The notes under the pieces were generated by a model. It saw only the letters and a list, made by a program, of their open reading frames with translations. It had not been told where the DNA came from and ran no database searches. Below, piece after piece: positions 4,768 to 54,810 of a stretch of DNA of 64,000 nt; the stretch's first letter is position 1; each line of letters begins with the position of its first letter. The DNA is from Eubacteriales bacterium. GTDB taxonomy: Bacteria > Bacillota > Clostridia > Oscillospirales > CAG-272. The stretch is from contig JAZTXV010000022.1 in the NCBI GenBank assembly GCA_045636605.1, positions 9,883-73,882 of the forward strand, given 5' to 3'. Both the position numbers and the translations under genes were made by a program.

Positions 4768-4775
4768 TAAAAATA

Positions 4776-5099: not shown

Positions 5100-5103
5100 G
5101 ACA

Positions 5104-5366: not shown

Positions 5367-5411
5367 ATTAATGTATATTTAGTTATTTAGTAACTGGAAA
5401 AGGAGTTAAAA

Positions 5412-8351: not shown

Positions 8352-8569
8352 TTAACCGAGCGTTAATATTAGTGGGGAGAATTTAGAGAAATGGGTAAAA
8401 TAACAGGATTCTAAAACCTGAATATAGGAGCATCTGTCGAAAAATCGCCAGATGCTTCTGCCACTAATATAAGATAGATTTCTACCGTGAAAAAGAGGGG
8501 CGAATGCCATCTTTCAACGGAAAAAATAAATATAAAAAACAGAAGAAAATTCTATAATGGAGGCAGAAA

Positions 8570-9889: not shown

Positions 9890-9901
9890 TAGGCGGTTAA
9901 A

Positions 9902-33400: not shown

Positions 33401-34502
33401 TTAAAAGTTTCCCCTTTGAATTAAGCCATTTCGTAAAAGACGGAATACTCATAAGATATCTTTTGAAATCCTCGTCAATCGCCATATAGTTTTTAAGAAG
33501 CACAACGGAGAAGTCCGCAGGAAGCCTCATGCCGTATTGTATTGATGTTTCAATGGCGCGCACGTTGTCCCTATGCTCGCTCACGTATGAGGTCATTGAC
33601 GAGATAAGAGCATACAAAACGTCTGTTTCTCTTGGTATTTCGGTGTATTTGCCCGAGAAAACATCCTCAATTCTCGGTAGCTTGTCAAACACTCTGCACC
33701 AGGAGCAGAACTCCGTTGCCGTACCGCCGCCGATGCATCCTGAGATGAGCGGATAAATTGATGTCGGATCATCTCCCGATACACGCAAAAGATTACTTAC
33801 CATCTCCCACGAGCGAGGAGTCGGGAATGCCTGATTGTCGCTTGACGTGTCGCTGTCAAGGAGCAAATCGTGCCTGAAGGACAAAAAGCCCGTAATCTTC
33901 GGCGAAATGCCGTGGGATACAGCCCAACGAAGCCACGAATCGAAGCTCGCCTCAATCTCGATGTGGCAAAGACGGTTTGCCAGAGCTCTTGGCATCTTGT
34001 ATGCAACGCTTTTGTCGGTAACCCTGTTTCCTGCAGCTATTACGATACAGTTGTCGGGAAGCCTATGCTCTCCTACAACTCTGTCAAGGGTAATCTGATA
34101 TGCCGCCGCCTGCACCGATTGAGGTGCGGCGGAAATCTCGTCGAGGAACAAAATGTTCACCACGTCATCGCTCTCGTTCATTTGGAATATCTTGGGCTTT
34201 AGCCACACTGCAAGGGTTTTGTCCTCGTTTGCCGTCGGTATTCCTCGCAAATCAATAGGATTGAACAGAAGCAGACGCACGTCAGTTACCACACACTCTC
34301 TGCCCGTAGCATCGGTGATTTCGCCTGCCAGCTGACGAACAAGCTGGGATTTACCGATACCCGGTGCACCCCAGAGCATAACAGACGGCAGATTCTTGAA
34401 CGGCGTACCCGATATGACAGCCGATATGTAAATTTTCGAAAGAGAGTCAACCGTACGGTCAACACTCAAGATAGGAATGTTCATTTTTCCGAAATCCTTC
34501 AT
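33390..34502 (-). CDS. AAA ATPase (MoxR/AAA_5-like) partner of DUF2201
   Basis: WGAPGIGKS, DLRGIP, LFLDE, IAAGNR, ALANR, FPTPRSWE. Confidence 0.92.
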   Translation of the reverse strand: MKDFGKMNIPILSVDRTVDSLSKIYISAVISGTPFKNLPSVMLWGAPGIGKSQLVRQLAGEITDATGRECVVTDVRLLLFNPIDLRGIPTANEDKTLAVWLKPKIFQMNESDDVVNILFLDEISAAPQSVQAAAYQITLDRVVGEHRLPDNCIVIAAGNRVTDKSVAYKMPRALANRLCHIEIEASFDSWLRWAVSHGISPKITGFLSFRHDLLLDSDTSSDNQAFPTPRSWEMVSNLLRVSGDDPTSIYPLISGCIGGGTATEFCSWCRVFDKLPRIEDVFSGKYTEIPRETDVLYALISSMTSYVSEHRDNVRAIETSIQYGMRLPADFSVVLLKNYMAIDEDFKRYLMSIPSFTKWLNSKGKLLNGN

Positions 34503-37500
34503 TGTGTAACTCCCAATTCATTGTCTATTCTTTTTATTTCAGCCATAAGCTGCTCGATTTTCGAGGAGTACGTATCGTCCTCGCCGAGCGCAATTTCAAT
34601 GTCTCTTTTCTTGATAAGAAGCGCCTCAAGACCTTCCTCAAGTCGCCCAAGGTGCTTTTCAAGGGCATCGAGGAAATTATCGATACGAGGCAGATAGCCT
34701 ATGCTCGAATCACCTAATTCAAGGTGATATTTTCCCTCTCTTACAAGCCAAATAAACGGCTTGTCGGCGTTCATTGCTGCGCCGAGAGTAATCATAAAGC
34801 CACGGTGCTCGAAAAGAGGCGTTTCCGTCGTCTCAAGAAGATTGTCACGCAACGCAAGCTCAAGGCGCTCTCTAAATCGCTTTCTTTGCTCCTTGTCAAG
34901 CTCCTTGTAGGTGCTTTCTCTTAAAAATTCGAGGTCACGTATCGCTTTTTCGATAATTTTCCTTTGAGTTTCTATAAGTGACGGAAGTGTATCAAGCTCA
35001 ATTCTGAGCATCTCGTGACGGCGGATTCTCTCACGCTTCAAAATAAGCAGTCTGTCAAGCTCGTTTGCCCTTTCAACCCTTTCCTTTACCAAGGGATTGC
35101 CGATAGCGATTGCCTTTACCTCGGCATAGGACAGAACCGTGTCGCAAACGTCGCTTCCCTCTCGCTCGTACATATGCCCCGAGAGAATAGAGGAAATAAA
35201 GCGTTGCTTCGTTTCGAGAAGCTGCCATGAATATGCATCAAAGCTTCCGGAGGTTATATACCTGTATATGAAAACCTTTTCGTTTTCGTTGCCCTGACGC
35301 AAAATTCGTCCCTCACGCTGTGTCATATCGGCAGGACGCCACGGCACGTCAAGGTGGTGAATTGCAATAAGCTTGTCCTGAACGTTTACGCCAAGACCGA
35401 GCTTGAATGTCGAGCCGATAAGAACCCTGATTTCGCCCTTTCTTGTCGCTTCAAATAGCCTCTCCCTTGCGCTTGGAGTGCCTGCGGAGTGTATAAATGC
35501 AATTTGCTCATACGGAATACCCCTTGTCACAAGAAGCGATCTCAGCTCGTCGTAAATGTTGAAGGATGCCTTCGGAGTGGAGTAGTCGCAGAAAACAAGC
35601 TGCGTGCCTTTTGTTTCATTGTATTCAAAATAAAGCCTTGCCACATTGTCGGCGCACGCCTCTGACTTTGAGCATCTCTGAGGTGGTATTCCCTCGTCGA
35701 TAAGACGCATATCAAGCGCCGCCTTTCGTCCGTCGGTGGTAATCATGAGCATATTGTCCTCGCTTCGCTTCACCTTGTGCGAGCGCACCTGCTCTGCACG
35801 CTCGGAGATTACCTTGAGGTAGTCCTCAAAAACCTCTGCTCGCTCGGTTACCGTATCGATGTAGCCGTCAAAAGCAGGAACGCCGGCGCTTTCGTCAACG
35901 ATGTGGAAATCTGCCACGCTCGCCAAAAGTGAGGTAAGCTCAGGCAGATTGTGAAATTTCGAGAAGCGGGAGGTGAGTCGGTACGAGCTTGTATCAACAT
36001 CAATTTCAAACTCCGTTCGCTTCTCGGCAAACATACCAATCCAACCGTCAAAGCTTGAAAGACCGAGAAGCTTCAAATCTCCGTCCTGCAGATATTTCTG
36101 CATAACAAACGCATCTGTTATGGAGTTGGTTATCGGCGTTCCCGTTGCAAGAACTACTCCACGTCCGCCGTTTTTTCGCTGAACGAAGCGTATCTTGTTC
36201 AAAATGTCCTGACATTTCGGGCTGCCCGAGGAGCTGATGCCGAGAACTCTGCCCGTATGGGTGTGTAGCGGCACGTTTTTATAGTTGTGCGCCTCGTCAA
36301 TGAAAATCGTATTTATGTCAAGCTCGTCGAAAAATATCGTGCCAAGCGACACCTCGGGCGATGCTCTTAGCGCCTCGATTTTCTTTTCGAGCGCCTTAAT
36401 TTGCCTTCCGTAACGATTGGTATATAGATTGCTCATCGCTTTGTTGTATTCCTCTATTTCGTTTTCGAGCAGCTCAATTTGCGACCGCTTTGAGAAGGGA
36501 ATAAGCTCAAAGGAGCTGTATGCCATAATTATTCCGTCGAAATCCTCGTCACGAATTTGCTTTAGCACACCTATTCGCTTCTTTGGAGTAAAGCTCTTTG
36601 GCTCTACGCAAAGAAGATTGGCATTCGGGTACATAGACAGGAAAATTTGCTTCCATTGACCTATAAGATTGTTCGGTACAACGAAAATGTTCTTTTTGGA
36701 TATGCCCGTACGCCTGAGCTCCATAGCCCCCGCAATCATAATATAGGTTTTTCCGCTTCCCACATCGTGAGCGAGCAGAGTGTTGGGTGTAAAAAGAATA
36801 CGGGCAACGGCATTTCGCTGATACGGATAGAGATTTATCTCAGGGTTAAGTCCCGGCAGAGTCAAAAACGAGCCGTCAAAATGTCTTACTCTGTTCGAGG
36901 AATATCTCGTTTCATAGATTCTTTCAAGCTCCGCCTTGCGCTCCGGCGAGGTCCAAATCCAATCCTTGAACGCTTTTACGATAATTTCCTGCTTTTCAAG
37001 CACACGCAAGGTTTTTGCCTCATTTAGACGCTTTTCCGTTTTGCCCGGAGTTGTCCTTGACGGAATCTCGTCAAACACCTCGACAGGCGACTGATTGAGC
37101 GTTTTTTCAATGATTACAAGTGCGTTCATATAGCGAGTGCCGTACGTATCGTAGCATCTGCCGCTGTATTGCGTGCCGTCGTATCTGCTCAACACGGGAA
37201 TTTCCCATATGCCCCGTCCCTCGTCGTGATAGCAGTTAAGCGCACCCGAGGGGTATTTGAAGCTTATATTGCCGAGCAGGTAAGTGATAAAATCGTCAAT
37301 CACTGAGGTGGGTAGCCACGGAGAGCCGAGAGTTACGTATATGTCATCTGTTGCAAGCCGCTTCGGCATAACCCTTTTCAACGCCTCGACGTTTTGTGAA
37401 AAGTAGCCCTTATATTTTTCATTTGCCTCTGTGGCAACACGGAGCTTTTCACGAAGCGAGCCGCTAAGGTATTCGTCCGCCGTTTCCCAGCCCTTATAGA

Positions 37501-37999
37501 AGCATTCTCCCCACGTTAGCGGATTTTGATATATAGAGCCTCGCAGGGACATGATGACGCTTTTGTAGTCTAAGCCCGTGATTGCGGCTATATATTCGAT
37601 ATCAACCCTTGCAAGCGTGTTAAGCGAGGAAATAAGCGCATCTGCCACATCGTCAGTATGCTCAAGCGGAGCACTTTGATTTGTAACGAACAGATTTTCA
37701 AAATCGGACGGCAAATCCATACAGGTGATTTCCGCAATTCGCTCATCCTCAAGGCGCTGAGCCTCCTCTAACTCGGCCATTTCATGCGCCTCTCGCATCG
37801 TAGCAAGCTCAAGAAGCCTTTTCTGCTCGGCAAGCATTCTTGCTTCCTTTTCCGCCTTGGCTCTTTCTCGTAAAGAGCGAAGCTCTAAAATAAGGTCCTC
37901 GGGATGCTGTGCGTAGTAGTTCACCTCAGACACACTTAATCGACGGTACGTCTTGAGCTCTGCCAAAAACAGCTCCAAATATTTTTGTGAAATCTTCAC
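34499..37999 (-). CDS. SNF2/DarB-like superfamily 2 helicase without methyltransferase domain
   Basis: ADEYLSG, LGSPWLP, LLAHDVGSGKT, DEAHNYKN, ATGTPITNS, DGRKAALD, GVNVQDK, PWRPADMTQREGRILRQGN; no NPPF/Y motif; GTG start with RBS AAAGGA. Confidence 0.88.
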   Translation of the reverse strand: MKISQKYLELFLAELKTYRRLSVSEVNYYAQHPEDLILELRSLRERAKAEKEARMLAEQKRLLELATMREAHEMAELEEAQRLEDERIAEITCMDLPSDFENLFVTNQSAPLEHTDDVADALISSLNTLARVDIEYIAAITGLDYKSVIMSLRGSIYQNPLTWGECFYKGWETADEYLSGSLREKLRVATEANEKYKGYFSQNVEALKRVMPKRLATDDIYVTLGSPWLPTSVIDDFITYLLGNISFKYPSGALNCYHDEGRGIWEIPVLSRYDGTQYSGRCYDTYGTRYMNALVIIEKTLNQSPVEVFDEIPSRTTPGKTEKRLNEAKTLRVLEKQEIIVKAFKDWIWTSPERKAELERIYETRYSSNRVRHFDGSFLTLPGLNPEINLYPYQRNAVARILFTPNTLLAHDVGSGKTYIMIAGAMELRRTGISKKNIFVVPNNLIGQWKQIFLSMYPNANLLCVEPKSFTPKKRIGVLKQIRDEDFDGIIMAYSSFELIPFSKRSQIELLENEIEEYNKAMSNLYTNRYGRQIKALEKKIEALRASPEVSLGTIFFDELDINTIFIDEAHNYKNVPLHTHTGRVLGISSSGSPKCQDILNKIRFVQRKNGGRGVVLATGTPITNSITDAFVMQKYLQDGDLKLLGLSSFDGWIGMFAEKRTEFEIDVDTSSYRLTSRFSKFHNLPELTSLLASVADFHIVDESAGVPAFDGYIDTVTERAEVFEDYLKVISERAEQVRSHKVKRSEDNMLMITTDGRKAALDMRLIDEGIPPQRCSKSEACADNVARLYFEYNETKGTQLVFCDYSTPKASFNIYDELRSLLVTRGIPYEQIAFIHSAGTPSARERLFEATRKGEIRVLIGSTFKLGLGVNVQDKLIAIHHLDVPWRPADMTQREGRILRQGNENEKVFIYRYITSGSFDAYSWQLLETKQRFISSILSGHMYEREGSDVCDTVLSYAEVKAIAIGNPLVKERVERANELDRLLILKRERIRRHEMLRIELDTLPSLIETQRKIIEKAIRDLEFLRESTYKELDKEQRKRFRERLELALRDNLLETTETPLFEHRGFMITLGAAMNADKPFIWLVREGKYHLELGDSSIGYLPRIDNFLDALEKHLGRLEEGLEALLIKKRDIEIALGEDDTYSSKIEQLMAEIKRIDNELGVTQ

Positions 38000-38969: not shown

Positions 38970-38999
38970 TTGACAGCATAAAAAGTAATATAGTATAAT
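38970..38999 (+). promoter_or_regulatory. Consensus sigmaA promoter of the FtsK/WXG-like operon
   Basis: TTGACA-18 bp-TATAAT. Confidence 0.7.
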
Positions 39000-39489: not shown

Positions 39490-42400
39490 ATGATAGAAAT
39501 CACAAAAATTATGGAAGTGATCGGTAGGATCAACTCCAACTGTACGACCATTGACAACCTCGAGGTAAAGTTGACAACAGAGTACAAAAGAGAAAAGAGA
39601 ACGGTAGAGTCATCGTGTACCGAAATGGTTGCGGAAATGCGACAAAAATACGATGCGTTCAAGGATAAGCATTTCCTTAGCATCAAAAGAGATATTAACG
39701 AGCTGATAGACCTTTTGAAAAAGGACTACTCTCAGGAATGGGCAAGCGTAAGTGTAAGCACCGCCGAGTTCTCTCGTAACAGCTACGAGGAAAACGAGAA
39801 GCTTCTTCACAAGATAATAGACGAGCTCAATACCGGCATCGGCAAGCTCAACGCAGTTGACTTTGATAAGCTCGTTCCACCGGTTAAAATCGAGGTAAAC
39901 GGAGAAACCTTCACAACCTTCACGGGCAATCACGAGAACAAGACAACCTACGATACCTCGACACGCAAAAGAGAGATGATAAGAGATCCCCTTCCCATCA
40001 AGGAGCTTGCAACCGAGGTGTTCGGTCACTGTAAGAGAGCCCTTGCGTGCATCGACGCATTGATTATGCTTTACGACAGACAGTTTGACATAGGCAGCTT
40101 CGCAGCCTTTGTTGACGACAGTGCGGCGGCTTGGATGGCAGAGTTTGAGTCGAAAATCCGTACAAGGTACGTAAAGAGCTTTGATGAGCTTTTTGTTGAC
40201 GAAACAGCCGGCGCAATTCCCAAGAGCTTCTTTGTGGAGCTTGACGAGGACGGCAAGAACTCCGATGTCGATGTTGTTGTAGGAGCAAGCGGCTTCAACA
40301 GAAGCATCAACATAGGTGATATCAAGCTTCTCGTTGAGGACGAGCCGAAGCACCTTAAGTACATTCAGGGAAGCCCTGTGCTTGACAGATATCTTGAAAA
40401 CGGATATCTCAGCGCACCGCTTATTCTCGACCTGAAAAAATGCGGAAATATCGTTCTTAATGTTGACGAGGAGAATTACTCCGACAAAACGATTGATTTC
40501 GTAAATCAGCTCATTATGCAATTCCTTCTTTCCTTCCCGGCAAACAGAATCAATTTCTGTCTTGTTGACGTTGATAATAAGATGGAATTTTCACAGTTCA
40601 AGAAGCTCACAAAGATAAATAATGATATCCTTCTCGGCGGCATCGTTCGTGACGACCGTAAGCTCGAGGACACAATTAAGGATATGGAAATGAGAATGTA
40701 TAAGGTAAACGACGACGTTCTCAGCTATAACGGAGTAGAGGACATCTACGAGTACAACGATCGCTTCAAGGCGAACCCGCAAAACGTTCACCTCTTTGTT
40801 CTCTCCAACTTCCCGTCGGGAATGAGAGATGAAACCGCAAGAAAGGTTCTCAAGCTCATTCAGGCAGGAAACAAGGCAGGTATTTACACAATCGTTATCA
40901 ATAACGAGTCCTGCAACCTCGGTTCAATGTTCAAGGCAAACGAATATCAGCACTTTATGCAGAACGTATCAAGCAATGCGCTTGTAATCAATAAGGTTGG
41001 CGACAGATTCACCCTTGACCTTGACACGCCAAACTACTTCGAGCCCAAGACAGACATCAGAACCTCACAGCTTGATAGCATTATCGAAATGCTCAAGGAT
41101 CACGCAACTCAGCTCAACAAGGTTGTTATTCCTCTTGAGCAAATGTTTGAGGACACCGATGCTATGGAAAAGAGCCCGAAGGGTATTCCTCCGACAGCCT
41201 CGCTTGTCGAGATTCCTATCGGTGCAAGAGGCGGAGAGCTTCAAACCCTTGCGTTGCCTACAAACGGAGACGTTCACGCAGTTGCGATCGGTGGTACCGG
41301 CTCAGGTAAGTCCAACCTCCTCCACACAATTATTATGAGCGCCTGCTACAAGTACAGCCCCGAGGAGCTCAACATTTACCTGCTTGATCTTAAGGAGGGC
41401 GTAGAGTTCAAGTATTACGAGAACCACCGTCTGCCGCACATCAAGCTTCTTGGTGTTGATCTTAAGGAGGATATCTTCTCAGCGCTCGCAATTCTTAAAA
41501 ACCTTCAAAACGAAATCACCCGCCGTGGTGCTATATTCAGAGAATGTGGCGTTTCGCAGATTGACGAATACGTTGCTAAGGGCAAAAAGATGCCGAGAAT
41601 TCTCGTTATTATCGACGAAATTCAAGAGCTCTTTGAGATTGACGAGAAAATTGGTCAAGAGGCAGTTGCTCAGCTTGCAACCTTGTTCAAGCAGGGACGT
41701 GCATTCGGTATTAACATTCTTTGGGCTTCGCAGAACGTGCCTAACTTCCCCGGACTTAAGACAAAGGTTCTCAGCCAAATTAAGAACAGAATCAGCTTGC
41801 GTCTTAACGATCCCGACGACGCTCTCAGCATAGGAATTGATCCTAAGGCAGTTAAGAACCTCAACAGACCTGAAAAGGGACTTGGTGTTATCAACGATAT
41901 TCGTTACGGTAACGACAGCGTTGAGTTCCGTGTTGCTTACGCATACGGCGTTGATGAGCGTACCACCTTCTCCGACAAGATTGTCAAAAAGTGGAAGAAG
42001 GTTACCGATGCAGTACCGCAAGCCCCGATGTTTATCGTCGGCGGAAACGAGGATCCGTCACCTATCGAGGGCGAAACACTCTTTACTCGTATTCCAACTG
42101 AAAACGACATCGTTTACAACGAGAGCGGAATGTATAACATCCAGCTCGGTCAGGACTACGTTGCAGGAAAGCCGTTTAATATCAATATTCCCATTGGCGG
42201 CGAGAAGGCAAACGTTATCGTTGCCGGCGTAGATGTCGAGATTTCAAGAGATATGATGGGCTATGCGCTCCTTTCGCTTATCGCAAACAGAGTTACCGAT
42301 AGCCAGAGCGCAAGGGAGAACGCAAAGATCTACTACGCAAACGGCGAGATGATCAACCCGAGAAACAGCTCAGATTTGTTCAACGTAATCCGTACGGATT

Positions 42401-43077
42401 TCGAGGGCTTGGTAGAGCCTGTATCGTCGGTTGAAAGGTTTAAGCTTTGCATAAAGGATCTTTACAAGCTCTATAAGGACAGAGTTGCTCAGCGTAACGA
42501 AAGTGAGGAGCTTACAGAGTTCACACCTCGCTTCCTCGTTGTTCACTCAATCCAAAGATATGCGAGCATCTTTAATGAAAACCCAACGCTTAGCCTGAGC
42601 GACGAGGGCACCCCCAACAGCGAACCGAGCGCACCGACGCCCGCCGCAACGGGAAGCCTGTTCACCGCAGGAAGCCTGTTCTCAAGCGCATCGGCTCCCG
42701 TTACTCCGTCAAGTGCGCCGAAATCTGTATCAAGCATCCTGTTCAACTCCGCAGTTAAGGAGCTTCTCACCGAGGGCGGAGCATACGGAATTCATTTTAT
42801 CGTATCAATCGACAATCCTCTCGGCATCGGTGCTATCAAGGAGGACCTCAAGAGCAGTATGTCGATCAAGCTTCTTACAAAGGGTATTGACAGCAACGCA
42901 ACGGCTCACCTTTTGAGTGGTGACTATAAGGCGGCAGGAAGCCTCAACAACCCGAAGGTTGCTCTTGTTGCTATTGCCGATGAGCGTACTAAGATAAGAG
43001 TTTACCGCTACGATGCAGAGCAGGACGGCGGCTGGTACAAGAGGCTTTGCGAAGCATACAAGAAGCTCGGAGGCTAA
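39490..43077 (+). CDS. FtsK/SpoIIIE-family (EssC/EccC-like) ATPase, soluble
   Basis: GGTGSGKS Walker A, YSPEELNIYLLDLKEGVEF, IIDEIQELF, KQGRAFGI..ASQ; degenerate ATPase-like domains on both sides; no TM stretch seen. Confidence 0.9.
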   Translation: MIEITKIMEVIGRINSNCTTIDNLEVKLTTEYKREKRTVESSCTEMVAEMRQKYDAFKDKHFLSIKRDINELIDLLKKDYSQEWASVSVSTAEFSRNSYEENEKLLHKIIDELNTGIGKLNAVDFDKLVPPVKIEVNGETFTTFTGNHENKTTYDTSTRKREMIRDPLPIKELATEVFGHCKRALACIDALIMLYDRQFDIGSFAAFVDDSAAAWMAEFESKIRTRYVKSFDELFVDETAGAIPKSFFVELDEDGKNSDVDVVVGASGFNRSINIGDIKLLVEDEPKHLKYIQGSPVLDRYLENGYLSAPLILDLKKCGNIVLNVDEENYSDKTIDFVNQLIMQFLLSFPANRINFCLVDVDNKMEFSQFKKLTKINNDILLGGIVRDDRKLEDTIKDMEMRMYKVNDDVLSYNGVEDIYEYNDRFKANPQNVHLFVLSNFPSGMRDETARKVLKLIQAGNKAGIYTIVINNESCNLGSMFKANEYQHFMQNVSSNALVINKVGDRFTLDLDTPNYFEPKTDIRTSQLDSIIEMLKDHATQLNKVVIPLEQMFEDTDAMEKSPKGIPPTASLVEIPIGARGGELQTLALPTNGDVHAVAIGGTGSGKSNLLHTIIMSACYKYSPEELNIYLLDLKEGVEFKYYENHRLPHIKLLGVDLKEDIFSALAILKNLQNEITRRGAIFRECGVSQIDEYVAKGKKMPRILVIIDEIQELFEIDEKIGQEAVAQLATLFKQGRAFGINILWASQNVPNFPGLKTKVLSQIKNRISLRLNDPDDALSIGIDPKAVKNLNRPEKGLGVINDIRYGNDSVEFRVAYAYGVDERTTFSDKIVKKWKKVTDAVPQAPMFIVGGNEDPSPIEGETLFTRIPTENDIVYNESGMYNIQLGQDYVAGKPFNINIPIGGEKANVIVAGVDVEISRDMMGYALLSLIANRVTDSQSARENAKIYYANGEMINPRNSSDLFNVIRTDFEGLVEPVSSVERFKLCIKDLYKLYKDRVAQRNESEELTEFTPRFLVVHSIQRYASIFNENPTLSLSDEGTPNSEPSAPTPAATGSLFTAGSLFSSASAPVTPSSAPKSVSSILFNSAVKELLTEGGAYGIHFIVSIDNPLGIGAIKEDLKSSMSIKLLTKGIDSNATAHLLSGDYKAAGSLNNPKVALVAIADERTKIRVYRYDAEQDGGWYKRLCEAYKKLGG

Positions 43078-43079
43078 CC

Positions 43080-43355
43080 GTGGCAGACGTAATTATTGAC
43101 GAGAGGGCGTTAGAGGAAGCCTCAGCGACCGTTAGAGTCTATCTATCAGGCTTAGACAGCGTCCTTAACGACGCCATAAGAAAAATCCAAGCATCCGCAG
43201 GAGATTGGAACGACGAGGACTACGAAAATCTGTTATCTGCCATAAGCTCATTTATGGCAGATATGGAGTCCCTCAAGGCAGGCGGGGAAGAGATTTTGTC
43301 AAGACTAAACGCAAAGATAGAGGCAATCCACAGATTGCGAAACATAACCATTTGA
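43080..43355 (+). CDS. WXG100-like helical hairpin protein (WND)
   Basis: 91 aa, amphipathic helices, central W-N-D; GTG start 2 nt after the ATPase stop. Confidence 0.7.
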   Translation: MADVIIDERALEEASATVRVYLSGLDSVLNDAIRKIQASAGDWNDEDYENLLSAISSFMADMESLKAGGEEILSRLNAKIEAIHRLRNITI

Positions 43356-43365
43356 GGTGACCTTT

Positions 43366-44283
43366 ATGGAATTTACAGGCATAGAGCAAGAGAATATCCT
43401 TACTGTCGAGAGGCTGTTTGAGAAAATCGACATTCAGGCAAGCGCCTCTGCCGAGGACATCACGGAGAGGGACGGACTTGACATTCCCGTCGGCATACGA
43501 GACGAGGATGGTGAAATACAGAATATTGTCCTTAAATCAAGCCTTTGTATAAGCAGCGTAGTCGTTGCGGGTAGTACAGGAACGGGAAAAACCAACCTTC
43601 TTAACACGATTTTGCTCAGCGCCTGCTACAAATACAGCCCCGAGGAGCTTGAGGTATATATTCTCGATTTCAATCAATATCATAGCGGATACGATCTTTA
43701 CAGGGATTGTCATCTTCCGCATCTGAGCCTGTTTAAGCCCTGCTTGGATAAAAACCCCTTCGATTTGCTTGATGTCCTAAGGGGCTTTGAGGACGAGATG
43801 ATTCGACGTGTCCAAGCATTTAATGAGGGCGGCGTCCGCCACGATTTTGACAGCTACATTCGCGCAGGCAACAAAATGAAAAGAATTCTCGTTATCGTTG
43901 ACGCAATTGAGGAGCTTTTCAGAAACGAGCAGGTAGCGGACGAGGCAGCCGATTTGCTCCGCAGCATTATAAATCGGGCAAGGCTAACAGGAATTCATTT
44001 TGTGCTTTCATTTGAGGATCTTATCTGTGTTCCGAGAATGAAAATGAAGGTGATAGCGGGACTCTGCGCAAGAGTTAGCTTACAGCTTGCCGATCCGTAC
44101 GATGCCTGCGTGCTAATGTTAAATCCCGATTCGGTTAAGGAGCTTGACGGCATCGCAGCTGCAGTTATAAATGATACTCGGTACGGCAGAGAATGTATCA
44201 AATTCCGCACAGCATACGCACACCCCACTGAGCGAAGGGCAGAGCTTGCTTTGCAAATCGCTGAAAAATGGAGAAAAATATAA
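43366..44283 (+). CDS. Single-domain FtsK paralog with degenerate Walker B
   Basis: GSTGTGKT, SACYKYSPEEL identical to the large ATPase, IVDAIEELF; RBS GAGGTG before ATG 43366. Confidence 0.85.
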   Translation: MEFTGIEQENILTVERLFEKIDIQASASAEDITERDGLDIPVGIRDEDGEIQNIVLKSSLCISSVVVAGSTGTGKTNLLNTILLSACYKYSPEELEVYILDFNQYHSGYDLYRDCHLPHLSLFKPCLDKNPFDLLDVLRGFEDEMIRRVQAFNEGGVRHDFDSYIRAGNKMKRILVIVDAIEELFRNEQVADEAADLLRSIINRARLTGIHFVLSFEDLICVPRMKMKVIAGLCARVSLQLADPYDACVLMLNPDSVKELDGIAAAVINDTRYGRECIKFRTAYAHPTERRAELALQIAEKWRKI

Positions 44284-44303
44284 ACATTACAAGGAGAAAA
44301 AAG

Positions 44304-44570
44304 ATGGCTTTTACTATTTCAGCAGAAGCGGCTAACAAGGCTATACAGTATTCGTCTGAGGCAATTCAAAGCCTTGCAGCCAACATAAACACGATGGACA
44401 CAGTTGTAAACTCAAACTTTTCGGGCCTGCAGGACCCGTCATTCCGTCGATATATCGAGCTTTCCGAGCAAATGCAGGGAATGCTAAGACAGGTTGGCAC
44501 TAAGATTGAAGCAGTCCAGGAATATTGCCAAAAGGTAATCAGATGGATTCAAGAATACGGAGAAACCTAA
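44304..44570 (+). CDS. WXG100-like small protein (LQD)
   Basis: 88 aa helical, central GLQD; RBS AAGGAG. Confidence 0.65.
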   Translation: MAFTISAEAANKAIQYSSEAIQSLAANINTMDTVVNSNFSGLQDPSFRRYIELSEQMQGMLRQVGTKIEAVQEYCQKVIRWIQEYGET

Positions 44571-44585
44571 TAGGAGGACGAAAAA

Positions 44586-44861
44586 ATGGACGCATTAAAG
44601 CTGGATCCCAATTTGCTTGACGAAACGGCTCAGGCAATCACAAATTATTGCAATATGCAAAACCAGGTAATCGAGGATTATCTTTCAAAAATGAGCGCAC
44701 TTCAGGGCGAGTGGACAGACGACCAAACAATAGGGCCGCTTCTTGAGGAGATAAGGAATCTCAAATCCTCTGTTGTCGAGCTTATGGGACAAATCAACGG
44801 CTACTACCCCGGCTATTTCAGACAAAAGGCTGAGGAAATCAGAAACAGACCTACATTCTAA
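44586..44861 (+). CDS. WXG100-like protein (WTD)
   Basis: 91 aa, LDPNLL start, central EWTD; paralog of the N-terminus of 47271. Confidence 0.75.
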   Translation: MDALKLDPNLLDETAQAITNYCNMQNQVIEDYLSKMSALQGEWTDDQTIGPLLEEIRNLKSSVVELMGQINGYYPGYFRQKAEEIRNRPTF

Positions 44862-44881
44862 TCAGGCAAAAGAGAGAAAGC

Positions 44882-45136
44882 ATGGAACAGTACGGAGCAT
44901 TTTCTCAAGCCATCATCTCGCTTGACGGTGGCTTGAGCGAGGTAAGGGCGGCTTGGCAAGACCAAACCGCTCAAACCTACGATTCGATAAACGAAAATAT
45001 GAAGGCCTGTGCGGCAGCCGTATGGCAGGTTTATACAAACGCCGCAGGCCTTTACGAAATGGAAAAGAAAAACTATAACGAGAGCGAGTTTGAGCAATAC
45101 ATAAACGAGCTCGGCGCAAGAGCATCGGCGGTGTGA
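44882..45136 (+). CDS. WXG100-like protein (WQD)
   Basis: 84 aa helical, AAWQD motif. Confidence 0.65.
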   Translation: MEQYGAFSQAIISLDGGLSEVRAAWQDQTAQTYDSINENMKACAAAVWQVYTNAAGLYEMEKKNYNESEFEQYINELGARASAV

Positions 45137-45137
45137 T

Positions 45138-46820
45138 ATGGCAAGTATAAGGGCAGTAATGTCTGCAATAGAAAAATTTAATAGCCAAAGCAACGCAGGA
45201 TATTCGGAGCTGCTCGCTATGGCAAACGAAATCCTGGCACAAACCGAAAGGCTGTGTATGGAGGTCAAGGCAGATAAGGAAACGATAGACAATCAAATAT
45301 GTCGTGCATCTGCAATAAGGGACGAGGTCTCTCAAAAGGCAAGCTTCTACGAGCATCAAATGAACGGATATTATTCGGATATGAAGCGTGCCGAGGAGGA
45401 GATAGAATATGTAATGTCCCATCCGAAAACGAGAACAGTCACCGACGACGATGGTAATTCGTACGAGGTGGAGGAAATAGATTACGGCGCACTTGCCGCA
45501 GCCGAAAGAAGATACGAAAGCGCAAAGGAAAGCTATTATCATTTTGCGAACAAATATCAAGAAGCAGCGACAATAGCAGCCGATGCAGTACAGGTAATTG
45601 CAAAATTCGAGTCAATGGGAAAGGCAGTGGCATACGTTGCGGACTCCATTGAAGCGGCAACATACGAAATCAGAAAATTCATAAGACTTATGGAGGAGGA
45701 GGCAGAATACAACCTCCAAGCGCTCTCTGCGCTTATAAGCAGACTTGGAGAATATCTGTCCTCAAAGCCGATATTCCACCCCACAGGCTCAATTTCACTG
45801 AGCGCATCAGGTGGCGCATCAGGTGGCGCATCGGTCGGCTCGTCATCCTCGGTCGGCTACTCCGCCGGAGGTAGCTCTGCTTCGTCATCATCGGGAGTCA
45901 CAAGCGGCGCTGCGACCTCGGGTGGACCAAAGGAAGGCTTTTTAAGTGATTTGTTTTCTAAATGCTTCAACAGGGAAAACACTAAGTCTAAAGAAACTGT
46001 TGATATCGAAAATGCGGCTCACGAGGAATTTAAAAAATTATTAGCGTCTAAGAAAGAGATCGATATTGAAGCTCGAAATAAGGACACTTATGATTCAAAT
46101 AATGATATTGCGGGTGATGGCAATCTTTTCTACGGCGTTGGTGGAAAGCACTTAAAGCAAGCGAAAAAGGAGCTTTTGTGCAAGCAAGGCAACAATTCTC
46201 GAAATAAATTGATGCTTGCAAGCGAGAAAAAGGGCAAGAAAGAATATGCATATACCTTTAGCGGCACATGCGGACCAACAACTCTTGCCAATACCGGAAG
46301 ACAGCTCGGACTGTCAGAGTTAACCGAAGATAAGGTAGTAACCCTTGCATGTCAACTTGGATTGTGCAGACAACCCTCATATTCAGAGGATGGTAAGTAT
46401 ATTCTGCACACCGGTGGAGGAACGAATAACGAACAGATTGTGGCATTGGCGAAGCACCTTGAGCTTGAAGCGGCATATTCTCCGAGCTTAACTCTTGAAG
46501 AGCTTGACGAAACAATCAAGCGTGGAGGAGCTATGATGATGAGCGTGTATAGCGAGGATTTATCATCGAAATCGAACCCCGCAGAAAGAAAATTTAAGAA
46601 CACAAACCACTGGGTTACCGTCACAGGAGTTACAAGAGATTCTAACGGAAAAATAGCAGGAATAATGATTACCGATACGGGAGGACACGTCGAAAGCTGT
46701 GACGGTACCGATATCATCAGCATAGAAAAATTCAATGCGATGAGAAAAAATTCGGGTGATTTTGCAGGTGTTTGCCTATTCAAGCCTGAAGCTGAGGTTA
46801 AAAAAGGAGACGACGAATGA
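45138..46820 (+). CDS. Putative polymorphic effector: helical N-terminus, G/S linker, papain-like C39-type peptidase C-terminus
   Basis: KQG..GTCGPTTLAN (Cys), TNHWVTVTG (His), ITDTG (Asp). Confidence 0.7.
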   Translation: MASIRAVMSAIEKFNSQSNAGYSELLAMANEILAQTERLCMEVKADKETIDNQICRASAIRDEVSQKASFYEHQMNGYYSDMKRAEEEIEYVMSHPKTRTVTDDDGNSYEVEEIDYGALAAAERRYESAKESYYHFANKYQEAATIAADAVQVIAKFESMGKAVAYVADSIEAATYEIRKFIRLMEEEAEYNLQALSALISRLGEYLSSKPIFHPTGSISLSASGGASGGASVGSSSSVGYSAGGSSASSSSGVTSGAATSGGPKEGFLSDLFSKCFNRENTKSKETVDIENAAHEEFKKLLASKKEIDIEARNKDTYDSNNDIAGDGNLFYGVGGKHLKQAKKELLCKQGNNSRNKLMLASEKKGKKEYAYTFSGTCGPTTLANTGRQLGLSELTEDKVVTLACQLGLCRQPSYSEDGKYILHTGGGTNNEQIVALAKHLELEAAYSPSLTLEELDETIKRGGAMMMSVYSEDLSSKSNPAERKFKNTNHWVTVTGVTRDSNGKIAGIMITDTGGHVESCDGTDIISIEKFNAMRKNSGDFAGVCLFKPEAEVKKGDDE

Positions 46821-47245
46821 ATAACATAGAAAAAATAATATCGGCATGTCACTACCATAGAGAAAAAAGTCAATCGTTGTCCGTTCCGTTTATTGTCAAT
46901 GACAACGGAACAGCAAAGATATCATGCTTCACTTATGACGAGCAGGAATTTGACGATAAGAACATTGTTATATCTGTTGGCGAGGCTTTTTTGACCGATT
47001 ATGAAAAAATGCAGCTTGAAATTCTTAAGGTTACAGCTCAGCCCGACATTTTCCCGCTTGAAATCGTATATGACGATTCGGTAAGCATCACAAGAGAAAG
47101 CATAGATGCGTACTATGACTACCTTGACGAGATTATGTCAAACGGAAAAATAGACAAGGAAAAATACAAGAAACTCTTTTATACGATTTGCCCTAAAAGC
47201 CTGAAGCCTATTTATGACTTCTTCGGCGCAGAATTTATAGATTGA
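46817..47245 (+). CDS. Putative immunity protein for 45138
   Basis: Small acidic ORF overlapping the effector stop (ATGA). Confidence 0.55.
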   Translation: MNNIEKIISACHYHREKSQSLSVPFIVNDNGTAKISCFTYDEQEFDDKNIVISVGEAFLTDYEKMQLEILKVTAQPDIFPLEIVYDDSVSITRESIDAYYDYLDEIMSNGKIDKEKYKKLFYTICPKSLKPIYDFFGAEFID

Positions 47246-47270
47246 CACCTCTTTCAAAACGGAGAGAAAA

Positions 47271-48365
47271 ATGGACGAGCTTATTTTAGATCCCAACGCT
47301 CTTGCCGAGCTGGCAAGAATAATCGAAGAATATTGTGACAAGCAGTCGGCAATTCTTGAGGAATACCAATCGAATATGTTATCCCTCGAGAGCGAATGGG
47401 ATGACGACCAAACCTTTGGCGAAATGCTAAAGGAAATATTGTCGCTAAAGCAGCAAATCCAACAAATGCTTGGGCAATTCAAGGGCTTTTACCCGCAATT
47501 TTTCAGAGAAAAAGCAGAAAAAATCGCAGGACGCCCGATATTTACAGGCGCATCGGGCGGAATTGGCTCCTTTGGCGGATTTGTCAGTGGTGGCTATGGC
47601 TCGGGTGGCGCATCCTTTGGCGGAGCATCCGGTGGTGCTTCGGGCGCAGGCTCATTCGGCTCATCCCCGTCAAGTGTGGCGGGTGGCGATTTCGTCTCTG
47701 ACGGCAAAAGACCGACCTCGCTTAAAAAAACAAGACAAGAGTGGCATATCGACGGCTATGTCAAGACCTTCAACACCCCCGTTGAAACCGGAAAGCTGCT
47801 CAACTCCAACCAAGGCGTTCCGAAATCGCTTGGCGGAGAGGGCATTGACGGATTCAGAGGAACGTGCGGACTTGTCAGCGTCGAAAACGTCTTGCGTATG
47901 GCAGGCGTAAAAATCACCGAGGCGGAAATTGTGGAATACGCAAGAACGCATATCGGCAAGGGAGAAAGAATGCTCTGCACAACAAATAATACCCCGGGCA
48001 GAAACGGCGGCACGTACCCGGAGGACAGACAGGCAATTTTAAGACACTTCGGCATTGAATCCACAATCGAAAAATATTCCCTTGATACAATGGCGTCAGC
48101 CGTTGAGCAGGGCAGAGGAGTTATCGTGTCGGTTGATGCAAACGTGCTATGGCACGGCATAAGCGTAGCAGATAAGGCGTATCACGCCGTTACGGTAACA
48201 AGCATACAAAGAGATAAAGCAACGGGCGAAATCACAGGCGTTTACGTCTGCGACTCGGGCGCAAGAGGAAGCTCAAGCGCCGTGCTTGTCCCCGTTGAAA
48301 AAATGACCTATGCCCTTGAAAACGGCACAGGTAAAATGAACGTAACAAGCACAATAATAAGGTAA
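47271..48365 (+). CDS. Putative effector: WXG100-like domain, G/S linker, C39-type peptidase
   Basis: EWDDDQT N-terminal domain; NQG..GTCGLVSVENV, YHAVTVT, VCDSG triad. Confidence 0.75.
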   Translation: MDELILDPNALAELARIIEEYCDKQSAILEEYQSNMLSLESEWDDDQTFGEMLKEILSLKQQIQQMLGQFKGFYPQFFREKAEKIAGRPIFTGASGGIGSFGGFVSGGYGSGGASFGGASGGASGAGSFGSSPSSVAGGDFVSDGKRPTSLKKTRQEWHIDGYVKTFNTPVETGKLLNSNQGVPKSLGGEGIDGFRGTCGLVSVENVLRMAGVKITEAEIVEYARTHIGKGERMLCTTNNTPGRNGGTYPEDRQAILRHFGIESTIEKYSLDTMASAVEQGRGVIVSVDANVLWHGISVADKAYHAVTVTSIQRDKATGEITGVYVCDSGARGSSSAVLVPVEKMTYALENGTGKMNVTSTIIR

Positions 48366-48377
48366 GGGTGGTGCGAT

Positions 48378-48872
48378 ATGGAATATAACGAAATCATAAA
48401 CAGAGCAATGGATGCGTTTTATGAAAGCGGCAGAGATTTCCCATCCACTATGCTTTGCCCGATATTAGAGCACGATAACGAAGGCAACGTGGTTGACAGA
48501 TTTTTGATGTGTGACGTCGTACGAAATTTCCAAAACGGAAAAATCGAAGGCATTGACGGCCCATACGAAATTTATCAGCAACGAACAGATACAGATACCA
48601 TAGGCGAATTTTTGAAGCCCGAGCAAGTAAGGTCAACTCCAAAGGAGAATGCGCCTCCTCTCACAGACGGAGTGAGCATCTCGGAATTTTCGGCGCTTTA
48701 TTTGCAGGTAAGAGAATTCGTATTCAAAAAACAGATAACAAATGCTCAAGCGGAGGCTCTTGTAAGACTCTTAACCATTTACGAGGAGCTTTTTGAGGCG
48801 GAATTTCAAGCGTTGTATCAAAGCTACGGCGCAGGCTTCTTCGATTGGGCACATTCTACGGTAAGGAGTTAA
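48378..48872 (+). CDS. Putative immunity protein for 47271
   Basis: Directly downstream of the effector; weak similarity to 46817 (P....DN.G; Y..[FY]GA.F). Confidence 0.55.
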   Translation: MEYNEIINRAMDAFYESGRDFPSTMLCPILEHDNEGNVVDRFLMCDVVRNFQNGKIEGIDGPYEIYQQRTDTDTIGEFLKPEQVRSTPKENAPPLTDGVSISEFSALYLQVREFVFKKQITNAQAEALVRLLTIYEELFEAEFQALYQSYGAGFFDWAHSTVRS

Positions 48873-49179: not shown

Positions 49180-50943
49180 ATGGATTTTAAAAAGTCAATA
49201 ACACAGCATTTAGAACGAAAATATGTTCAAATGCTTAACAGAGAAGCGCCGATACCATATACAGAGGCAGTCGGCATTGATAACAGCGACTCGTATAGCG
49301 AGAAAAGAGAAAAATATTACAGTCGACTCTCTCGGGAAAAGAACGAGTTTAACCAATCGGTAGTCAAAATAACAGATGCCGAGGCGGCTCGCTTGGGCGC
49401 AGAAAATGACGAGCTTGAAAGAATAGCGATGGCGAAATTCAGAAGGACAAGGGCAATAAGAACAATACTGTTCATTTTGCCCGTGATAGTTGCCGCCCTC
49501 GTCGGACTTGACGTGTTCACCGAATCGCACGGCCACATGGATACAATCCAATACGATTTGGGAATAGACCTTGGATGGATAATATTCTTCTATGTTTTAT
49601 TCTGCCTTGCGGCGCTCGTCGGATCGGCAATTCTGCTCAACATTTCAATGTACTCAAACGAAATGTACATAGATCGCACAACGATAATCGGCAAGAAAAA
49701 ATACAACACAATAGCTATCGTTGTATTCGCTCTTACCTTAATAATCGTGCTGATTAACGCATTTCAGCTTATTCAAAATCTCGGCAAAGGCAAGATCGTT
49801 TTGGTAGGCGCTGACCGCAGAGAGATAAAATATTTTGAAAGCGGCACGGAGTTTGTTTTCCCCGAGCCAAAAAAGGCTGACGAGAAAAAAGAGGACCATT
49901 TCATAAGATACACCTTCACGCATTGGGAAATAGGAGATGAAAAATACAATGCGGGAGATACCATAGCCCTTGACGGCTGGTACACTGCAACCGCTGTTTT
50001 TGAGGACAGAAAATGGGCAACCCTTTCGTTTTCATTCTCCAATTCGTCAATGTCCGTTGAATATGACGGCAAGACAATCAGTGTAAAATCGGGCGACCAA
50101 ATTGAGATTCCGTGCGGAACGCAGGTTAAGGTAGAGGTGGATTTCTATTATTCGGATACCTCGTTTACCGTGAACGGTAGCAGTGCAAAAAACCCGCATA
50201 GCTTCACACTGTCCTCGAACATGAGGTTCTCTGCTACAAGCTCCAGCCCGGGATGTATCGCTCCCGGAACGGAAATCGTTCTTTTTGACGGAACGGTAAA
50301 GCTTGTCGAGGAGCTTGAAATGGGAGATATGCTCCTGGTGTTCAACCACGAAAGCGGAAAATACGAGGCGCATCCGCTTCTTGCCAATATTCACGCAAAT
50401 ACAGCGCCCGACTACTTTGATGTAATAAAGCTCACGTTCTCAAACGGCAAGGAGCTTAAAATAATTGACGAGCACGGGCTTTTTGATAAGAGCCTGAATC
50501 GCTATGTTTACCTGAACGCAGAAAATGCGGGTGATTTCATAGGTCACCGCTTTGCTTGCGTTGAGCGTAGCGGCTCAGATGTGGTAACCTCGGATACAGT
50601 CTTGGAGAGCGTTACCATAACAAACGAGCTTACAAAAATCTACAATCCCGCATCAATTTGGCATATAAACCTCGTTGCAAACGATTTTCTGACGCTTTCG
50701 GCAGGTATGGTGAATTTGTTTGAATACGACGAGAATATGAAATACGATGAGGAAAAAATGCTAAGCGATATTGAAAAATACGGCTTGTTCACCTACGAGG
50801 ATTTCAAGGACTACGTGCCGTATGAGGTATATCAGATATTCCCATTCAAGTATTATAAGGTAGCAATCTCAAAGGGAGAGTTTACATACCAACGATTGCT
50901 CGGACTTATAGCGCTATACAATAACCCGGACTCTATAAGGTAA
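49180..50943 (+). CDS. Membrane protein: shared N-terminal domain, 3 TM, InlB-like repeats, Hint autoprocessing domain and C-terminal tail
   Basis: PG/CIAPGTEIVLFDGTVKLVEELEMGD (Hint block A), ELKIIDEHGLF (block B), KIYNP...NLVANDFLT. Confidence 0.8.
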   Translation: MDFKKSITQHLERKYVQMLNREAPIPYTEAVGIDNSDSYSEKREKYYSRLSREKNEFNQSVVKITDAEAARLGAENDELERIAMAKFRRTRAIRTILFILPVIVAALVGLDVFTESHGHMDTIQYDLGIDLGWIIFFYVLFCLAALVGSAILLNISMYSNEMYIDRTTIIGKKKYNTIAIVVFALTLIIVLINAFQLIQNLGKGKIVLVGADRREIKYFESGTEFVFPEPKKADEKKEDHFIRYTFTHWEIGDEKYNAGDTIALDGWYTATAVFEDRKWATLSFSFSNSSMSVEYDGKTISVKSGDQIEIPCGTQVKVEVDFYYSDTSFTVNGSSAKNPHSFTLSSNMRFSATSSSPGCIAPGTEIVLFDGTVKLVEELEMGDMLLVFNHESGKYEAHPLLANIHANTAPDYFDVIKLTFSNGKELKIIDEHGLFDKSLNRYVYLNAENAGDFIGHRFACVERSGSDVVTSDTVLESVTITNELTKIYNPASIWHINLVANDFLTLSAGMVNLFEYDENMKYDEEKMLSDIEKYGLFTYEDFKDYVPYEVYQIFPFKYYKVAISKGEFTYQRLLGLIALYNNPDSIR

Positions 50944-50953
50944 GGAGATAAAA

Positions 50954-53833: not shown

Positions 53834-53985
53834 CCTTGAATTAAAGCAAGTCAAAGGCCAAGCAAAAAACCTAAGCGAATTTGAAATCGCAGGAACATAT
53901 TTAGGAAAGAACCGGCGAGCATGAGCAGATTGGTCGGGAGCTTCGTAAATGGCGTTGCTACAAAAACAAACACAAGGAACAAACA

Positions 53986-54810
53986 ATGAATTTTGGACAG
54001 TCAATCCTAAAACACACAGAGAAAAAATATACCGATATGCTAAGCAGAGCAACACCCTCGCCCTATACCAAGAGCGAGAGTGTTGACTCAAGTAATCCGT
54101 ATAGCTCTAAGCGTGATGCATACTACAATCGCCTCGCTCGTGAAAGACGGGAGTTCAACGGTGCGCTTGATACGATTTTAGACACAGAGGACGCTCGTTT
54201 AAGAGAAGAAAGAAATCTAAAGGAAAGAAAGCGCCGCGACCGTCGCCGTGCAAGGAAAGTAAACCTTCCGTTTATTCTGTCAATTATTCTTTCCCTTGCC
54301 GTGACCTTTGTGGTTGTGCCTCTCGAGGCATACGCCTGGGTGGCAGAAACGCTCATACCCTCGGCTTCACTTGCAAATTTCTTTAACACCGGGCCAAACG
54401 GAGAGGGAATTCTCGCATTACAACTAACCCTTGCGCTATTTTTGATAAGCTTGCTAATAGCAATAATTATCATGATAAAAAAAGAGGGATTTTTGGCTTT
54501 CTTGGGGTTCATTTGGACAAGCTTTTTAGTGCTTTTGTTCCTTGGCTCAATCATTTTGGGAATTCTGTTCTGCGTATTTAGATTTTTGGTATTTTTGATT
54601 TCGTACGTATCGTTTGCACTTGTCAGCTCTGTTGCCCCGTTGGCGCTCGGAGTGGCATCGATCACCCTTATGATAATATACGGCAGGGGAATGGAGCTTA
54701 AGCGCAACAAGGCTAAGACCGCTATAAAAATCGTGGCAGGCGTTTTGATAGCCGTAGTTCTTTTCGGCTTGGCAGACAGCGCAATGCCATACTATTACTC
54801 AATTTTCTAA
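53986..54810 (+). CDS. Membrane protein: shared N-terminal domain plus ~5 TM helices
   Basis: N-terminus clearly similar to 50954, then hydrophobic segments only. Confidence 0.8.
   Translation: MNFGQSILKHTEKKYTDMLSRATPSPYTKSESVDSSNPYSSKRDAYYNRLARERREFNGALDTILDTEDARLREERNLKERKRRDRRRARKVNLPFILSIILSLAVTFVVVPLEAYAWVAETLIPSASLANFFNTGPNGEGILALQLTLALFLISLLIAIIIMIKKEGFLAFLGFIWTSFLVLLFLGSIILGILFCVFRFLVFLISYVSFALVSSVAPLALGVASITLMIIYGRGMELKRNKAKTAIKIVAGVLIAVVLFGLADSAMPYYYSIF

Follow-up and report, generated by a model that had tools for sequence, protein, structure and literature searches.

A stand-alone FtsK/EssC-type domain with a degenerate active site as a candidate accessory subunit of a type VII-like toxin-export ATPase

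In type VII secretion ATPases, gating and cargo choice depend centrally on degenerate ATPase domains. In the systems studied these domains are covalently joined to the motor and are therefore difficult to dissect from it by genetics. The D2 domain of G. thermodenitrificans EssC, in which Asn follows the Walker B Asp, was crystallised with ATP bound, and its authors state that the equivalent Glu-to-Gln change abolishes hydrolysis and spares binding (PMC4925161). In mycobacterial EccC, as described in PMC6954902, the ATPase3 domain has a Walker B motif of the form hhhhDD, holds intact ATP, shows very little activity and binds the C-terminal tail of EsxB, and the EccC of ESX-1 is naturally split into EccCa1 and EccCb1. 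A published abstract on group B Streptococcus places the variable modules of EssC beside variable cargo genes. Here we present a locus in which such a domain is encoded on its own. It lies in a stretch of 64,000 nt (the window) of contig JAZTXV010000022.1 from an Eubacteriales bacterium (GCA_045636605.1, here G000; a 1.6-Mb assembly, 73% complete), where the gene at positions 43366-44283 encodes a 305-aa protein, P0002. We put at roughly 0.55 the probability that P0002 assists a type VII-like toxin-export ATPase as an accessory subunit that does not hydrolyse ATP.

A single P-loop domain and its active site

The gene runs on the + strand from ATG 43366 to the end of its stop codon at 44283, and its identity as a stand-alone FtsK/EssC-type P-loop domain is based on translation, Pfam, BLASTP, AlphaFold and Foldseek. 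Direct reading of the sequence places a ribosome-binding site GAGGTG (43354-43359, +) 6 nt ahead of the ATG, and the public gene calls P0004 and P0154 agree on the 305-aa start. BLASTP aligned the full length of P0002 (residues 14-308 in the numbering of an open reading frame (ORF) begun at GTG) with residues 546-838 of the 1195-aa ATPase encoded from 39490, giving 108/298 identities (36%) and an E-value of 1e-61, and PF01580 FtsK_SpoIIIE matched at 55.9 bits (cut-off 24; E 5.2e-15). The original prediction, made from the sequence alone, that the protein is a copy of the central domain of this ATPase is borne out in terms of homology. The peptides it listed as common to both proteins are all found in both: INDxRYG, FRxAYA and SACYKYSPEEL (43618-43650, +), the DNA of which is identical at 31/33 nt to 41338-41370 of the large ATPase gene. 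Gene conversion was considered for the last of these and rejected. Identical codons are used at 9/11 positions of the peptide, compared with 51/108 identical residues sharing a codon as background, but the tract was picked post hoc and the peptide is kept across the family, so there is no clear sign of conversion.

The AlphaFold model of P0002 is confident (pLDDT 86.5, pTM 0.89), and its top Foldseek matches were EccC 4nh0_A (E 8.1e-17, TM 0.70) and FtsK 2ius (E 3.7e-16, TM 0.72). A profile search of the PDB ranked EccC 4nh0 (E 1.5e-53), EccC5 and YukB all above FtsK 2ius (2.1e-21). The best NCBIfam models were those of type VII EssC/EccC (TIGR03928, TIGR03924, TIGR03925), of which a single domain was covered; TIGR03928 scored 69.4 bits, short of its full-length cut-off of 778.4, and the large ATPase also fails it at 110.6 bits. 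Maximal Kyte-Doolittle values over 19 residues were 1.49 for P0002 and 1.35 for the large ATPase, below the 1.6 taken to indicate a membrane anchor. P0002 is best described as a soluble, folded, single FtsK/EssC-type P-loop domain. An assignment to a defence system was tried with PADLOC and rejected: the matches were just those of generic domains (mad8 of MADS, E 3.7e-13; SspH, E 6.9e-11; HerA), they were weaker than the EssC match, and the cluster contains no defence-system partner genes.

An exhaustive protein search of 1.84 billion representatives returned 12,633 matches at E <= 1e-3, and the best-matching domain of each protein among the best 150 of these, with at least 200 aligned residues, formed an alignment of 128 domains. 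The Walker A motif of P0002 is intact (GSTGTGKT, residues 69-76; 43570-43593, +), its Lys being present in 128/128 domains, and the Walker B Asp, found in 126/128, is kept. Walker B reads VIVDAIEE in P0002 and VIIDEIQE in the large ATPase, so that Asp179-Ala180 (43900-43905, +) has Ala in place of the catalytic Glu; the residue at this position is Glu in 106/128 domains and Asn in 15/128, and Ala is confined to P0002 and its variant P0004. Ser215-Phe216-Glu217 (44008-44016, +; LSFED in P0002, WASQN in the large ATPase) stands where active domains have an Ala-Ser-Gln stretch that we take to be the sensor, and the position of Glu217 is Gln in 107/128 domains. In Motif 1, a name taken from PMC6954902, active domains have Asp-x-Lys/Arg, and the basic residue is gone from Asp101-Phe-Asn103 (43666-43674, +; LDFN in P0002, LDLK in the large ATPase); the third residue is Lys in 105/128 domains and Asn solely in P0002 and P0004.

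These positions vary together. Walker B Glu and sensor Gln occur jointly in 105/128 domains, and Glu is missing in 22/128; among these 22, Gln is missing in 20 (with Asp or Glu there in 12) and the Motif-1 Lys in 22/22. P0002 matches the Glu-less class at all three positions, with the Walker A Lys and the Walker B Asp retained, and so carries the full signature of a naturally non-catalytic class. All arginines common to active domains are also retained, and five are invariant among five aligned sequences. The intact Walker A and the changes from DEIQ to DAIE and from ASQ to SFE had been read correctly in the original prediction; its list of losses was incomplete, a third one, Motif-1 Lys to Asn, having gone unnoticed. 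With Lys to Asn, Glu to Ala and Gln to Glu at three positions that co-vary with competence in the 128 domains, its designation of the protein as probably catalytically dead is well supported at the level of sequence.

Constraint, origin and distribution of the stand-alone gene

The genome of a sister species (G041) encodes an intact 294-aa orthologue, P0052, in the same slot of a syntenic cluster, between genes for proteins of 92 aa and 88 aa. This copy keeps Asp-Glu in Walker B and the Motif-1 Lys and has lost Gln alone, which argues that the losses were stepwise and that the fully degenerate site is specific to the species of the window. Between the two genomes no gene of the cluster has diverged as far as the stand-alone gene, which shows 30.5% identity and a rate of nonsynonymous substitution (dN) of 0.71. 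The large ATPase shows 66.4% identity (76-85% in its middle domain) and dN 0.26, the middle domain alone 77% and dN 0.18, and the other cluster genes compared 39-57% and dN 0.37-0.54 (seven computed). Synonymous sites are saturated across the cluster pair, with proportions of synonymous differences (pS) of 0.58-0.79. For the stand-alone gene the pS of 0.741 is saturated, and the proportion of nonsynonymous differences (pN), 0.457, is not. The two ORFs are full length and align end to end, with Walker A, the Asp and five arginines invariant. Together with a pN well under pS, this rules against neutral decay.

Variation closer to the window agrees with an intact gene. P0004 is a 98% strain variant in which 6/305 residues differ and the degenerate motifs are unchanged. 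In four metagenome runs, which cover the gene fully (X3, X4) or in part (X6, X7), no indels are listed inside 43366-44283. Among the differences listed for the metagenome contigs none falls inside the gene, with 88 further differences beyond those listed; one contig shows 18 differences in total across 42503-44253, and a second shows 58 across 40900-44104. The X6 contig lacks one base at 44285, in the intergenic space (44283 to 44304) just past the stop codon of the stand-alone gene. The original prediction had held that absence from relatives combined with neutral decay would speak against it; absence is indeed widespread (17/19 loci of other genera), and decay is not seen, the gene being intact, syntenic and constrained in the sister species. 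The stand-alone gene is fast-evolving yet constrained, and it is not a decaying pseudogene.

The relatives of P0002 nearest to it besides P0004, among the best 150 of the 12,633 matches, are middle domains of proteins of ~1150-1250 aa, with 34-39% identity, and a word-indexed protein search returned P0004 and one FtsK fragment only (2 matches among 3732 candidates). In the trees the branches of the stand-alone proteins are long, 2.1 substitutions/site for P0002 and 2.9 for the G041 copy, against a median end branch of ~0.5 over all rows. The trees place the two proteins at the base of the middle domains of the family, and neither is closer to the motor of its own species than to that of the other species. 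The long branch and the missing closeness to its own motor rule out a recent tandem duplicate, and the word duplicate used in the original prediction can be kept for homology only, the branch of ~2.1 substitutions/site being at odds with a recent copy. An ancient separate lineage was considered too and is not required: the approximately unbiased (AU) test did not reject a clade of the two stand-alone proteins and the middle domains of the two motors (p 0.46), with the long branches making the placement unsure. The most parsimonious history has a single duplication before the two species split, after which the copies diverged fast.

Beyond this pair the gene is rare. We compared 19 family loci (L022-L040; one genome per species; 1,981 to 8,097 nt of downstream sequence; hmmsearch at E <= 1e-2). 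One of them is the G041 locus, one (L034) has an unrelated FtsK-like ORF, and 17/19 have no further FtsK-like ORF. In L034 the ATPase gene is followed by ORFs of 93, 88, 93 and 85 aa and then one of 441 aa, which is the usual order without the stand-alone gene; in the window, the latter is inserted after the first small gene. The FtsK-like ORF of L034, from a Bacilli metagenome-assembled genome (MAG), encodes 252 aa (9838-10596) 4.7 kb downstream of the ATPase gene, with GQSGSGKS, IIDEYAD and STQ intact, and its product is apparently a different, active small ATPase, as far as these motifs indicate. A metagenome scan with P0002 gave three loci, all of large ATPases, two of which end less than 1.3 kb past the ATPase.

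An EssC-like match at E <= 1e-14 is present in 10/50 genomes of the genus, G000 included. Of six loci of other subfamilies that were viewed (L015-L018, L020, L021), two carry stand-alone FtsK-like ORFs right after the ATPase gene: two ORFs in G005 (314 and 329 aa) and one in G047 (358 aa). Like P0002, these products are single, catalytically degenerate FtsK-like domains, and their genes lie between that of a transmembrane-less EssC-like ATPase and those of small helical proteins and a C39-like toxin; unlike P0002, the products have lost Walker A and Walker B altogether. They are closer to the middle domain of the ATPase of their own subfamily (E 1e-18 to 1e-26) than to P0002 (1e-9 to 1e-11) and therefore probably represent independent duplications. 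The orthologous pair shared by G005 and G047 is 65% identical with a ratio of nonsynonymous to synonymous rates (dN/dS) of 0.19, close to that of the motor (0.17), and evidently free-standing dead copies of the motor domain are kept by selection in the family.

Other relatives have different architectures. Proteins P0006-P0013 and the product of 3688-12291 of locus L043 are giants of 2000-3075 aa with seven or eight tandem FtsK-like domains, and one of their contigs is labelled Anaerolineae. In the best-matching domains of P0006-P0013 Walker B is degenerate, with Asn, Asp or Ser after its Asp, and the Motif-1 Lys is missing. Locus L016 (G007:C131) encodes a related transmembrane-less ATPase of 1029 aa among many BspA-type leucine-rich-repeat proteins with N-terminal zinc-ribbon motifs, and neither small helical proteins nor a stand-alone domain were seen in its neighbourhood.

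The large ATPase and the proposed role of P0002

The large EssC/EccC-like ATPase P0001 (1195 aa; 39490-43077, +) has no predicted transmembrane segment, as judged from hydropathy. Its Walker A (GGTGSGKS) and Walker B (IIDEIQ) motifs are confined to the middle domain, the active-type paralogue of P0002 (41125-42003, +; motifs GGTGSGKS, IIDEIQE and LWASQN), and are absent from both flanking domains, which makes P0002 the only other P-loop domain of this machine. In orthologues an hmmsearch with an active-domain profile found three FtsK-like domains in a weak-strong-weak order (for G041, E 1e-05, 5e-94 and 3e-07). The architecture of the large ATPase comprises a coiled-coil N-terminus followed by degenerate, active and degenerate FtsK-like domains, with no FHA domain. 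The family, of ~1150-1550 aa, is found in gut MAGs of Christensenellales/Clostridia and some Bacilli. In its accessible text, the paper defining T7SSc-j (further classes of type VII secretion system, T7SS) describes the ATPases as membrane-bound and makes no mention of Christensenellales, split, soluble or Walker. No transmembrane-less-ATPase system of this kind is mentioned in the accessible text of the T7SSa-j paper, the supplementary accession lists of which could include the family. Literature searches combining type VII secretion, Christensenellales and WXG100 found no paper, and searches combining FtsK, WXG100 and polymorphic toxins with the lack of transmembrane segments found no such system in titles and abstracts.

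In the explanation that we favour, the stand-alone gene arose when the middle domain of the 1195-aa ATPase was duplicated together with its N-terminal linker. The product would bind nucleotide without turnover and dock in trans on the large ATPase, whose sole nucleotide-binding domain is the middle one, and it would gate the motor or select cargo among the small helical proteins and toxins of the downstream genes. Because residue 546 of the large ATPase is the first to be aligned, the duplicated segment includes the linker before the active domain. In multi-domain EccC-type proteins the linker segment packs on the preceding domain, and the copying of the linker along with the domain suggests docking of P0002 onto the motor. 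A co-assembly role is plausible by operon position and by analogy with EccCb1 and EssC D3, and we make no commitment between adaptor and inhibitor. The fast divergence slightly favours a cargo-facing adaptor, with relaxed constraint explaining the rate equally.

Several points weigh against the accessory role. Most of the Glu-less domains of the alignment belong to related giant multi-domain proteins, and the co-variation of the three positions therefore does not amount to 22 independent events. To judge from the sister copy, the catalytic loss is lineage-specific and does not define the stand-alone gene. The family can do without this gene, which is absent at 17/19 large-ATPase-like loci from other genera. 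The binding of nucleotide and of partners by P0002 is inferred by analogy. A dN of 0.71 in the stand-alone gene against 0.18 in the paralogous middle domain is also what relaxed constraint predicts, and the saturation of synonymous sites precludes a dN/dS value for this gene. On such grounds P0002 could be taken for a duplicate on its way out, one that may be transcribed with the operon, serves no selected function and survives for lack of time: it is the fastest-evolving product of the cluster, it has no counterpart at 17/19 related loci, and catalysis was lost step by step (Gln only in G041; Lys, Glu and Gln in G000). We nevertheless hold this to be the least probable explanation, as full-length ORFs (305 and 294 aa) persist in the same slot of both species despite saturated synonymous sites, pN (0.457) stays well under pS (0.741), and the five aligned sequences all agree in Walker A, the Asp and five arginines. 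The confident AlphaFold model, the lack of listed indels in four metagenome runs (two with partial cover) and the dN/dS of 0.19 of the motif-less G005/G047 copies argue in the same direction.

It is also improbable, if a little less so, that P0002 is still a working ATPase, a second, separately encoded motor subunit in which another carboxylate, such as Glu182 (two residues past the Ala) or Glu217 at the sensor position, takes over the activation of water. In favour of this, P0002 keeps Walker A, the Walker B Asp and all arginines common to active domains; Gln-to-Glu changes have brought in acidic residues at the sensor position and three residues past the Asp. Asp-Glu is still present in the G041 orthologue, and in some ASCE ATPases the catalytic Glu is located off the Walker B strand. 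Against this, three co-varying positions have been lost jointly, in the pattern of the 22/128 Glu-less domains, and the Glu at +4 is also found in active domains (DEIQE) and is not a replacement. EccC ATPase3 and EssC D2, solved with such sites, show little or no turnover. Of the alternatives the one to which we give most weight, while still regarding it as unlikely, overlaps the accessory role: P0002 might be a negative regulator, a 'poison' subunit that stalls the large ATPase by entering or capping its hexamer, up to the arrival of cargo or a signal. P0002 is paralogous to the sole active domain, not to the degenerate ones, and has kept the arginines as well as SACYKYSPEEL and INDxRYG, two surface peptides conserved in the family; Rosenberg and colleagues are said to have found in 2015 that EccC ATPase1 is held inactive by a neighbouring domain. 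The present data do not tell a poison subunit from an adaptor, but a pure inhibitor has no obvious need to outpace every other cluster gene in evolution.

Gene cluster and comparison with known systems

Just upstream of the stand-alone gene a 91-aa helical protein is encoded (43080-43355, +; GTG 43080 after GGAGG), with a Pfam WXG100 match under the cut-off (E 0.033) and 50.5% identity to its G041 orthologue. Downstream, 44304-45136 (+) encodes three small helical proteins (88, 91 and 84 aa) that are likely to be cargo partners. They are all conserved in G041, and the 84-aa protein has a WXG100 match that is likewise under the cut-off (E 0.012). Next come two toxin-like proteins of 560 and 364 aa with C39-like peptidase domains (45138-48872, +; PF13529 at 25.5 and 34 bits, cut-off 24), the gene of each being followed by a small immunity-like gene, and further downstream lie genes for a 97-aa helical protein and three membrane proteins (49180-54810). 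A consensus sigma-70-type promoter (12/12) is located upstream of the cluster (38970-38999, +), no terminator-like site was found on the + strand over 42961-45300, and the gaps around the stand-alone gene measure 10 nt upstream and 20 nt downstream, so it is most likely co-transcribed with its neighbours.

Some of these products share domains. The 91-aa helical protein of 44586-44861 and the first ~90 residues of the 364-aa C39-like protein (47271-48365) are paralogous, so that the same targeting-type domain occurs both free and fused via a Gly/Ser-rich linker. The 560-aa toxin-like protein (45138-46820) has a helical N-terminus, a Gly/Ser linker and the C39-like domain; its counterpart in G041 (L019) is a 249-aa ORF with the helical N-terminal part only, and the immunity-like gene at 46817-47245 has no counterpart in the G041 gene order. 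The three membrane proteins (49180-50943, 50954-53833 and 53986-54810) have in common an N-terminal domain of ~90 aa followed by three or four hydrophobic segments, and differ in their C-termini, which show a sub-threshold Hint-module match (19.4 bits, cut-off 29.7), BspA-type leucine-rich repeats, or neither. These proteins might serve the ATPase as membrane partners or be its cargo; the G041 version has 1550 aa.

On the - strand, 32126-37999 encodes a 1166-aa SNF2/ResIII-type helicase, followed by a MoxR-like AAA protein and then by a metallopeptidase/VWA protein of the DUF2201 type. In PADLOC the helicase matches the DrmD and BrxH models weakly, and a defence-type module may stand beside the secretion cluster. 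Elsewhere the window carries ordinary chromosomal genes, among them those for pyruvate kinase, PTS enzyme I, DNA polymerase III delta and SbcCD. Metagenome runs that contain this stretch are labelled as goat, sheep, bovine or other animal gut or faeces.

As a tentative generalisation, still rather doubtful in our view, the active motor domain may have been copied repeatedly to free genes, at least twice independently, with each copy losing catalysis stepwise and evolving fast as an exchangeable subunit for cargo specificity or gating. If true, the copies would represent the variable EssC D3 module in unlinked form and would provide a natural series from ATPase to pseudo-enzyme adaptor. If the gene is merely a relaxed duplicate, the finding is an ordinary one. 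Most interesting is that free-standing copies of the motor domain within a single genus form a series of stepwise degeneration, in which catalytic loss extends from 1/3 residues in G041 through 3/3 in G000 to all motifs in G005 and G047. A separate gene that is present in some lineages and absent in most amounts to a natural add/remove experiment on a non-hydrolysing FtsK-like domain. It would also offer a way into a toxin-export system of uncultured Clostridia from the ruminant gut, one that goes unmentioned in the accessible text of the T7SSa-j paper.

The closest parallels to P0002 are domains D2 and D3 of EccC and EssC, which have the FtsK/SpoIIIE fold with Walker A kept and the Glu after the Walker B Asp replaced. 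Those domains are fused within a membrane-anchored multi-domain protein, whereas P0002 is a separate 305-aa polypeptide, and by sequence it descends from the active, D1-type domain of its own motor and not from the D2/D3 lineage. The replacement differs too, being Ala in P0002 (0/126 other compared domains outside P0002 and P0004), Asn in EssC D2 and Asp in ATPase3. EccCb1 of ESX-1 resembles P0002 as a soluble, separately encoded FtsK-like part that adjoins the main ATPase gene and is implicated in cargo recognition (PMC6954902). However, EccCb1 is a split-off piece of two domains (ATPase2 and ATPase3) that completes the standard count, and P0002 is a single duplicated domain; unlike EccC with EccCb1, the large ATPase is complete without the extra gene in most relatives (17/19 loci).

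In S. aureus, the variable C-terminal modules of EssC lie beside variable cargo genes. As in these modules of T7SSb, the fastest-diverging ATPase part here adjoins variable cargo genes, which suggests a role in specificity; the T7SSb modules are fused and exchanged between strains, whereas the P0002 domain is unlinked and diverges by point substitution between species. The system of P0002 fails the full-length EssC/EccC models, is without a membrane anchor and reaches WXG100 only below threshold (E 0.033 and 0.012). P0002 is a single domain, separately encoded, derived from the active domain of its own motor and optional within the family. By analogy, it would work like EccC/EssC D2/D3 and EccCb1 without belonging to those lineages.

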